From Candidatus Woesearchaeota archaeon (lineage in GTDB: Archaea > Nanobdellota > Nanobdellia > Tiddalikarchaeales > Tiddalikarchaeaceae), in NCBI GenBank assembly GCA_964565435.1, contig CAZMEY010000001.1, positions 1-46,268 of the forward strand: a DNA stretch of 46,268 bases, given 5' to 3'. The notes beneath the pieces were generated by a model that was given only the letters and a program-made list of their open reading frames with translations, did not search any database and was not told the origin of the DNA. The translations under genes and the position numbers were made by a program. Positions 18,586-18,985 of this stretch are shown here, piece after piece. How positions within the stretch are numbered: position 1 is the first letter of the stretch; every line of letters starts with the position of its first letter.

Positions 18586-18614
18586 CCCACATACACCTTT
18601 ATTTCCTATGGAAC
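18586..18614 (-). repeat. ORB-like origin recognition box (inverted copy)
   Basis: The reverse complement gttccataggaaataaaggtgtatgtggg aligns with gtttccataggaaacaatggggtgtgggtg at 18961-18990. The dyad core is ttccataggaa. Confidence 0.6.
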
Positions 18615-18636
18615 TCTATTATGCAATGCCTAACAC

Positions 18637-18649
18637 TTCAAATGGAAAC
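18637..18649 (+). repeat. Degenerate mini-ORB-like element (ttcaaatggaaac)
   Basis: 10 of 13 positions match the core ttccataggaaac of the longer boxes. Confidence 0.3.
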
Positions 18650-18894
18650 ATAAAAAAATAAAAAAATAATTTCAAAAAATCTATTTTTTCTAAAAAAATC
18701 TTTTCATTTCATGTGTCTTCTTTTTTTATTATATATTATATATTTACTATATGGTAAATATATATAATAATAAGATATTAAGAGAAAATGGAAAAGCTTT
18801 GAAACGTGTTTTTAATGGATTATTTGCTTTAAATTTCTTCTGGATAAACCTCAAATATTTTTCAAAAATATTGCAATAATAGGTTTAAAATCCT

Positions 18895-18918
18895 TTTCCA
18901 TAGGAAACAATGGGGTGT
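18895..18918 (+). repeat. ORB-like origin recognition box, copy 2
   Basis: tttccataggaaacaatggggtgt is an exact 24-bp repeat of 18962-18985. The dyad ttccataggaa plus a downstream GGGGT string matches the archaeal ORB layout. Confidence 0.7.
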
Positions 18919-18961
18919 TAATACAATTTTTCTAAAAAATTTTTTGGAAGGGTCTATATTG

Positions 18962-18985
18962 TTTCCATAGGAAACAATGGGGTGT
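18962..18985 (+). repeat. ORB-like origin recognition box, copy 3
   Basis: Exact 24-bp repeat of 18895-18918. Confidence 0.7.

Follow-up and report, generated by a model that had tools for sequence, protein, structure and literature searches.

The DNA stretch analyzed here (hereafter, the window) spans positions 1 to 46,268 of the 53,682-base contig C1 from the genome assembly of an uncultured DPANN archaeon, Candidatus Woesearchaeota archaeon, and contains, immediately upstream of an orc1/cdc6 gene, a compact array of repeats organized like an archaeal chromosomal replication origin. The evidence presented below supports the identification of these repeats as canonical origin recognition boxes (ORBs) that are inverted around an A/T-rich tract beside a gene of the Orc1-1 type. 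The locus probably is the oriC1-type replication origin module of this lineage and the active origin of the chromosome, although this assignment is far from certain. The module is ordinary in kind, and its role as the main start site of replication in its own lineage is tentative. The assembly consists of 683 kb in 60 contigs (35% G+C, mean A+T of 64.7%) and is 90.75% complete. The relatives used for comparison are metagenome-assembled genomes labelled Candidatus Nanoarchaeia or Nanoarchaeota, and the same family includes Ca. Tiddalikarchaeum anstoanum. The class survey covered 30 orc1 loci of Nanoarchaeia from many families, and the close comparison included five related loci, with Orc1 proteins 78-91% identical, together with the closest relative, L186 (GCA_030154545.1). 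In the literature searched, we found no description of ORBs for Nanoarchaeia or other DPANN archaea; a 2026 preprint (10.64898/2026.05.13.725050) reports 208 complete Nanobdellota genomes rotated to orc1, without an analysis of boxes or skew. The principal elements of the module are the following.

17316..18527, minus strand: orc1/cdc6 gene of the Orc1-1 type, 403 aa from the ATG at 18527, identified by Pfam, TIGR02928 and PDB matches

18585..18614, minus strand: proximal ORB, GTTCCATAGGAAATAAAGGTGTATGTGGGT, 35.2 bits, kept in all relatives compared

18637..18647, minus strand: degenerate mini-ORB, TTCCATTTGAA, without a G-string and oriented like the proximal ORB, conserved in relatives

18648..18800: A/T-rich tract, candidate duplex unwinding element, delineated by composition and duplex stability

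18743..18758: central palindrome, TTTACTATATGGTAAA, 16 bp, class consensus TTTACWATATWGTAAA

18895..18920, plus strand: inner distal ORB 1, exact 24-mer, 33.0 bits

18962..18991, plus strand: outer distal ORB 2, exact 24-mer with an extended G/T string, GGGGTGTGGGTGTG, 35.0 bits, identical in L186

The 24-mer TTTCCATAGGAAACAATGGGGTGT is present in two exact copies on the plus strand, at 18895-18918 and 18962-18985, as reported in the first-pass annotation of the window; none of 100 dinucleotide-preserving shuffles yielded such a match. The diverged inverted copy upstream of orc1/cdc6 that was claimed in the same annotation was recovered as well, in the form of GTTCCATAGGAAATAAAGGTGTAT at 18591-18614 of the minus strand, with 19 of the 24 bases identical to the 24-mer (18 of 21 within the core 21-mer), and the G/T string of this proximal box continues to 18585. 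The inverted 29-nt arms are 349 nt apart and 79% complementary, and the two 24-nt direct repeats are spaced by 67 nt. Each box consists of a TTCCA-NN-GGAAA dyad, a 4-nt spacer and a GGGGT string. The dyads of the full ORBs are turned to the A/T-rich center and the G strings point outward, with the G/T string of the proximal box running towards orc1; the outer distal ORB 2 abuts the stop codon of the upstream gene, which encodes a PadR-like protein discussed below.

The proposed ORB layout, a dyad core followed by a G-string, holds up against both the published consensuses and the boxes of the relatives. The window box TTTCCATAGGAAACAA-TGGGGTGT contains the same TTCCA, GGAAA and GGGGT blocks as the pan-archaeal consensus CTTCCAGTGGAAACGAAAGGGGT and the Methanomassiliicoccales consensus GTTCCAGTGGAAATGG-AGGGGTA (PMC4153887), and matches the latter in its 22-nt spacing. 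When scored with a weight matrix derived from 70 boxes of relatives, with the window's own boxes excluded, the window boxes reach 33-35 bits of the possible 39.5, and no other site in the genome exceeds 17.4 bits. Dispersal of the 24-mer as a generic repeat, a concern raised in the first-pass annotation, was not observed: the whole 683-kb assembly contains three box copies only, and a control pattern read backwards has zero matches.

The box array is conserved across the class in both position and polarity. Boxes are located upstream of orc1 in 28 of the 30 class loci, and a generic ORB pattern has 76 matches in the 17.4 kb upstream of orc1 compared to 6 in the other 102 kb, an approximately 74-fold enrichment. 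Where boxes occur in both orientations (20 loci), the minus-strand boxes are without exception distal to the plus-strand ones. The anticipated ORB consensus for the lineage can accordingly be given for the class as TTCCAtAgGAAATaAAGGGGTgtgtg (also given as TTCCAtAgGAAATaAAGGGGTgtg). The same order of elements is retained in the six close relatives (the five related loci and L186), in which the degenerate mini-ORB reads TTCCAT(A/T)(A/T)GAA, except for one further variant, TTCCACAAGAA, in L009. L186 is collinear with the window over the entire gap: the outer distal ORB, the palindrome block, the mini-ORB and the segment from the proximal ORB to the ATG are identical or nearly so, whereas the spacers have diverged, which is the pattern expected of protein-binding sites.

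Two observations on boxes fall outside this general picture. In L186, the two distal ORBs differ from each other, the inner one reading TTCCATCGGAAATAAAGGGG; because the corresponding boxes are identical 24-mers in the genome analyzed here but unlike in L186, this suggests a recent homogenization of the two distal boxes in the lineage of the window. Elsewhere in the assembly, three weak ORB-like boxes (14-17 bits; minus, minus and plus orientation) are located at C12 2955-3032 in a 108-bp gap upstream of a gene encoding a 551-aa protein, 0.75 kb from ftsZ; this cluster is a possible secondary Orc1-binding site.

The interval between the inverted boxes is rich in A and T, albeit less so than originally stated: the region 18650-18800, described in the first-pass annotation as nearly pure A/T and as an A/T-only element, is 86.8% A+T (20 G/C in 151 nt), and the complete inter-ORB interval (18615-18894, 280 bp) is 80.7% A+T. 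When distinct 150-bp regions of the genome are compared, 18650-18800 has the third highest A+T content, and it belongs to the three to seven richest regions of the genome; the core of the tract is the fourth least stable 100-bp duplex window in the genome. The tract exceeds those of the congeners L006-L008 by about 130 bp and is collinear with that of L186.

Within the tract, the central palindrome occupies an 80-bp block that is identical to that of L186. A copy with at most two mismatches is present in the 600 bp upstream of orc1 at 21 of the 30 class loci, and at 12 of the 20 loci with both box orientations the palindrome is flanked by the inverted ORBs, a number that rises to 18 when the criterion is relaxed. 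The palindrome is a conserved third cis element of the origin module. It was also considered as an element marking the exact midpoint between the boxes, but it is found anywhere from 43 to 253 bp away from the flanking dyads, so that its position is interior rather than central.

The identification of the neighboring gene as orc1/cdc6 was correct. The product matches the Pfam families Cdc6_C (2.9e-27), Cdc6_lid (5.5e-21) and AAA_22, and scores 403 bits against TIGR02928 (cut-off 181). Full-length alignments were obtained with Orc1-1 of Saccharolobus (Sulfolobus) solfataricus (2qby_A, E = 2.1e-94) and ORC1 of Aeropyrum pernix (2v1u_A, 5.6e-92), both of which are structures solved on ORB DNA, and the winged-helix segment TQRRxS...GRYGxT is conserved in the Orc1 alignment. 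Orc1 proteins touch DNA twice, via the winged helix and via the initiator-specific motif of the AAA+ domain (PMC3607249). Orc1 is highly likely to bind the boxes of the window. A second, divergent Orc1/Cdc6 paralog (353 aa, 236 bits against TIGR02928) is encoded at C36 5980-7041 (L005 1495-2556); it is packed tightly between genes, with neither adjoining intergenic space nor nearby boxes.

The short region between the proximal ORB and orc1 contains two further conserved elements.

18535..18546: mini-ORB-like dyad, TTCCAAAGGAAA, downstream of the orc1 TATA box and ahead of the start codon, kept in relatives

18550..18570, minus strand: orc1 promoter block, TTACAGAAATATTTATAAGCT, kept in the window and five relatives

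Both the dyad and the promoter block are present in the window and in the five relatives, with one substitution each in L010, and are identical in L186; the equivalent dyad in the genome G059 is TTTCGTTTGGAGAA. A TATA-like TTTATAA sequence is located at 18553-18559, about 29 nt before the orc1 ATG, and the 18550-18570 block presumably is the promoter, given its position and the archaeal TATA consensus. The dyad at 18535-18546 is a candidate autoregulatory site for Orc1.

By extension from the solved Orc1-ORB complexes (2qby, 2v1u) and from the biochemistry of the Sulfolobus oriC1, the module might be envisaged to function as follows. Each ORB would be occupied by a single Orc1 monomer, whose winged helix would contact the TTCCA-NN-GGAA dyad and whose AAA+ domain would reach the G string through its initiator-specific motif. 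Once loaded on the inverted boxes in its ATP-bound form, Orc1 would recruit MCM to the A/T-rich interval, and the duplex would open there. Orc1 would also repress orc1 by occupying the dyad located between the TATA box and the start codon.

To what extent the module coincides with a switch of strand polarity was assessed in 13 genomes, namely, that of the window and 12 relatives (G002, G006, G007, G009, G016, G019, G027, G028, G030, G056, G058 and G059), of which G059 is a complete 774-kb genome, G002 is a congener, and G006 is Ca. Tiddalikarchaeum from the same family. We used a corrected skew, in which the A-T and G-C skews at third codon positions (AT3 and GC3) are calculated per gene and compared between the strands, separating the coding-strand effect (c) from the chromosome-strand effect (r). 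In G059, the corrected cumulative AT3 curve peaks at 211,423, with orc1 and the ORBs at 212.3-213.8 kb, and has its nearly antipodal trough at 584,576; the range of this curve was reached in none of 2000 gene-order shuffles, and its sign, with T and G in excess in the leading strand, is typical of origins. In G006, G009 and G030, the skew peak falls exactly in the ORB-bearing intergenic gap, whereas in G027 and G016 it is two and three genes away from the locus, respectively. Altogether, the switch is located within zero to two genes of orc1 and the ORBs in 5 of the 13 genomes (G006, G009, G030, G059 and G027), and a conservative combined test of position across all 13 genomes gives p = 0.0017. 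The orc1/ORB module is a replichore boundary in a good part of the class, and hence is an origin there.

A high-scoring second ORB (30.8 bits) is present in G059 (L051) at about 201,931-202,145, with a palindrome 190 bp away. This site is 11 kb from the origin at orc1, and the corrected skew peak (211.4 kb) lies between the two.

Several results weigh against an active origin at this locus, above all in the genome of the window itself. The raw cumulative GC, AT and purine skews show nothing at the locus in the window, G059 or G056, and no V-shaped GC curve; these raw curves are, however, uninformative and largely parallel the purine (RY) curve, which is attributed to gene orientation. The genome of the window displays a strong strand asymmetry on every contig, independent of gene orientation (on C1, AT3 is +0.21 for plus-strand genes and -0.11 for minus-strand genes, with the opposite for GC3), and this asymmetry has the same sign on both sides of the module: in the orientation of orc1, the mean r is -0.170 upstream and -0.157 downstream. 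The skew transition, whose absence the first-pass annotation named as a refutation of the predicted oriC, is therefore missing, the left-right difference on C1 being -0.013 (95% bootstrap interval -0.095 to 0.069) compared to about 0.33 for a full switch, and C1 shows no polarity switch over the 18 kb to one side of the locus and the 35 kb to the other. Likewise, there is no switch at the locus in the congener G002, nor in G028, G056 or G019. In G007, the switch is about 20 kb upstream of orc1, and on the 956-kb contig of G056 a distance of 130-300 kb separates it from this gene; treating this contig as a closed circle is invalid, and only the local left/right test was used for G056. Finally, the polarity of G058 (C1, about 76.8 kb; L158/L159) does change precisely at the locus, but in the reverse sense: r for GC3 passes from +0.175 on one side to -0.161 on the other, and the locus marks the minimum of the cumulative AT3 curve instead of its maximum.

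A rearrangement near the module does not explain the missing switch. Compared with G002, G007 and G006, a block of about 20 kb (24.6-44.1 kb; 24629-44117), which begins with dnaG and includes the gene at 41796-44117 at its other end, is inverted, with one breakpoint about 5.5 kb from the origin, and the eIF5A-dnaG junction is common to L186. A recent inversion was considered as a sufficient cause and rejected: L186 shares it, and the non-inverted genes that adjoin the origin carry the polarity of the contig, so the inversion does not rescue the switch. Accordingly, of the predicted oriC, the module of ORBs and A/T-rich tract stands and is conserved class-wide, but the expected polarity switch, although seen in 5 of the 13 genomes tested, is absent from its own genome; in its own genus, the module is not detectably a replichore boundary.

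A serious alternative is that, in this genus, the locus binds Orc1 but is a dormant or minor origin, with replication starting mainly elsewhere and the forks normally passing through in the direction of orc1 transcription, and that the ORB cluster is kept for orc1 autoregulation and/or for occasional firing. We regard this scenario as possible but rather unlikely. It agrees with the uniform strand asymmetry across the locus in the genome of the window and in G002, with the displaced switches in G007 (20 kb upstream) and G056 (130-300 kb away), and with the conserved ORB-like dyad between the TATA box and the ATG of orc1. Furthermore, origins beside cdc6 can be dispensable: Thermococcus kodakarensis is reported to replicate without Cdc6 and the origin (PMC5663688). 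The second Orc1/Cdc6 paralog on C36 could be invoked as well, but it has no adjoining intergenic space or boxes, and there is no other ORB cluster of comparable quality in the 683-kb assembly. Moreover, three full ORBs with outward G strings and a conserved A/T-rich tract exceed the needs of an operator, and the same module is the polarity switch in 5-6 relatives from the class.

Replication might also start only here but proceed effectively in one direction, either with a single fork or with the origin and the terminus side by side. One-directional firing implies that no polarity switch is expected at the origin, and a strong asymmetry indeed runs unbroken through the canonical origin in the genome of the window, G002 and G028. 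This scenario appears improbable given that the complete G059 genome has a clean pattern of two replichores with the switch at orc1, that G006, G009, G030 and G027 also flip at the locus, and that the 956-kb contig of G056 does contain a switch, away from orc1; the small contigs C23 and C25 of the genome of the window itself give hints of internal sign changes. Furthermore, unidirectional replication is not known for any archaeal chromosome.

A nature unrelated to an origin, such as the ends of a miniature mobile element, a two-unit array resembling clustered regularly interspaced short palindromic repeats, or a structured RNA, could be suggested by the inverted 29-nt arms and the two 24-nt direct repeats, but is effectively excluded because the boxes have no other copy in the genome, are fixed in position and orientation relative to orc1 across the class, and match the published ORB consensus, and because no Rfam family matched 18300-19800 at E <= 1.

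Thus, an oriC1-type origin module that is probably active remains the preferred interpretation of the locus. Its third cis element, the central palindrome, appears to be linked to the gene on the far side of the distal boxes.

18994..19551, minus strand: PadR-like winged-helix gene (P0001), 185 aa, with an invariant N-terminal GRP, assigned by structure model and conservation

19584..19599: another copy of the palindrome, weaker, TTGTCTATATTGCAAA, 33 nt before the start codon of the PadR-like gene

The 185-aa protein has no Pfam or NCBIfam match (E <= 10) and no sequence match in PDB, and all 28 homologs that carry a name are annotated as 'hypothetical'. The gene is found upstream of the origin at 21 of the 30 class loci. 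An AlphaFold2 model of the protein (predicted local distance difference test score, pLDDT, of 86; predicted template modelling score, pTM, of 0.78) consists of a winged helix followed by long C-terminal helices. The best Foldseek matches of this model are PadR-family regulators, including Bacillus subtilis PadR on its palindromic operator (E = 1.5e-4 to 1e-3), with a probability of 1.0 and TM-scores of about 0.3 over the full length and 0.5-0.6 on the winged-helix part. Near the N-terminus, an invariant G-R-P follows a basic residue (K/R), an arrangement that, in our own reading, resembles the core of an AT-hook.

The second palindrome copy is located in the divergent promoter region that the PadR-like gene shares with a P-type ATPase gene. 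Promoter copies of this kind, 25-60 nt before the start codon, were identified at 16 loci including the window, and the promoter and origin copies within the same genome are more alike than those from different genomes (mean distance 2.29 vs 3.06, permutation p = 0.0026), although kinship among the loci may inflate this difference. In G056, where the homolog is beside the origin, TATTCAATATGGAAAA is found at -56; in G059, the homolog is not beside the origin, yet TTGCCATATTGCAAATAAAT is present about 45 nt before its ATG.

Copies of the palindrome elsewhere in the genomes are few. In the genome of the window, the strict pattern has 4 sites with at most one mismatch and 13 with at most two, and a degenerate pattern has 8 sites with at most one mismatch; given so few sites, the palindrome was rejected as a general promoter element, and it could instead be a specialized operator. 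The 13 sites in G059 include two beside the two best ORBs; 11 of the 13 are intergenic, compared to about 10% of that genome, and most are 25-60 nt upstream of genes, for example, gyrA, rpS12, ogg and the tRNA splicing endonuclease gene. The simplest reading of this distribution is an autoregulated PadR-like protein that would control a small regulon and have one of its sites in the unwinding tract. The central palindrome is most probably bound by the PadR-like protein, which could act there as an accessory origin factor or as a regulator.

Palindrome-like sites also occur in a different context. A large non-coding region at C26 ~900-2800 (L081) contains three of these, ATTACAATATAGTAAA, TTTACCATATGGTTAA and TTTACCATATTGTAAA, along with a series of iteron-like repeats, CAACA(C/T)AT, and a gene for a MarR/TrmB-like winged-helix protein; this region possibly represents a plasmid-like or viral element that carries a replication or partition site of its own.

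Combining these lines of evidence, we tentatively propose, as a doubtful but specific joint hypothesis, that the Nanoarchaeia possess a three-part origin, composed of inverted ORBs, the palindrome TTTACWATATWGTAAA and a dedicated PadR-like/AT-hook binder, and that in some lineages, including that of the window, the polarity switch resides elsewhere. If so, the PadR-like protein would bind two copies of the palindrome, the one in the unwinding tract and the one in the promoter of its gene, in a role analogous to that of UBP on the ucm motif of Sulfolobus but with an unrelated sequence. In some lineages, moreover, replication would start mainly at a relocated site or would not fire bidirectionally, with the module nevertheless kept intact. 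Regardless of this proposal, the locus and its relatives provide an ORB consensus for the class, and the module is the first to be described for the lineage in the literature searched. The ancestral oriC1 design persists in genomes of only about 0.7 Mb, and the palindrome together with the neighboring DNA-binding gene constitutes a testable candidate for an accessory origin factor. Because the canonical module and a replichore boundary coincide in only about half of the genomes tested, the reliability of 'orc1 plus ORBs' as a predictor of the active origin in reduced archaeal genomes comes into question.

The genomic neighborhood is rich in replication genes, those for both PolD subunits, RPA and DnaG being located within 12 kb.

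6680-10204: PolD DP2

12033-13526: PolD DP1

16387-17319: DP1-like phosphoesterase

22426-23463: RPA

24629-25780: DnaG

Beyond dnaG, a small Toprim gene (25787-26152) is located upstream of it; the equivalent gene in L186 (3422-3778) is called intact, with 118 aa. It is followed by a Fic/DOC gene of very low G+C content (26295-27736; 446 aa, Pfam 8.7e-19) and, after the latter, by a 100-bp intergenic stretch that is 96% A+T, the most A+T-rich spot of the genome. L186 lacks the Fic gene, with the genes for DnaG, the small Toprim protein and GlyRS being contiguous; because of this absence, the Fic gene is considered a recent insertion.

Among the characterized archaeal origins, oriC1 of Sulfolobus/Saccharolobus and of Aeropyrum pernix shows the closest resemblance in layout, with inverted full ORBs around an A/T-rich tract upstream of an Orc1-1-type gene. 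In known origins, the winged-helix side of the boxes probably faces inward. The A/T-rich tract of the Sulfolobus oriC1 contains a conserved non-ORB motif (ucm), as that of the window contains the palindrome. The window differs from oriC1 in having two tandem distal ORBs 67 bp apart and two mini-ORBs, and in its inter-ORB interval of 280 bp, compared to the 130-bp ORB3-DUE-ORB2 region (DUE, duplex unwinding element) of S. islandicus; its central motif, a palindrome of 16 bp, does not resemble the 11-bp ucm ATTATACAAAC. Unlike the oriC1 systems, the module of the window coincides with no polarity switch in its own genome.

The analogy with ucm extends to the distribution of the sites. The Sulfolobus ucm is a DUE motif that oriC1 strictly requires and to which UBP, an abundant protein with more than 300 other sites, binds (PMC12141716). 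Both ucm and the palindrome are short conserved motifs between inverted ORBs that have a limited number of other, mostly intergenic sites. The sequences and the proteins are nevertheless unrelated, the candidate binder of the palindrome being a PadR-like winged-helix protein rather than UBP, and the other palindrome sites, 25-60 nt upstream of start codons, are in an operator- or promoter-like position, in contrast to ucm.

The oriC of Pyrococcus and other Thermococcales resembles the window in being located beside cdc6, with the genes for both PolD subunits nearby, and in combining ORBs with 13-bp mini-ORBs that have TTCC...GAA cores; for the ORBs of P. furiosus, binding of Cdc6 and the importance of the TTCC and GAA cores have been demonstrated (PMC1904270). 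The spacer between the dyad and the G-string is 4 nt in the window compared to 9 nt in ORB1 of P. furiosus. In contrast to Thermococcales, dp1 in the window does not contain a second ORB cluster, with only a single TCCAGGGGAAA at chance level inside this gene, and cdc6, dp1 and dp2 do not form one operon, being separated by the gene for the DP1-like paralog and other genes.

With respect to the PadR family, represented by B. subtilis PadR and by VanR, the predicted fold of the 185-aa protein, H1-beta-H2-H3-wing followed by C-terminal helices within about 180 aa, resembles that of PadR subfamily 1, and the palindrome in the promoter of its own gene is a feature shared with autoregulated PadR genes. 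The protein has no sequence-level match to this family, from which it is further distinguished by the invariant (K/R)-G-R-P and by the conserved position of its gene at the side of the origin.

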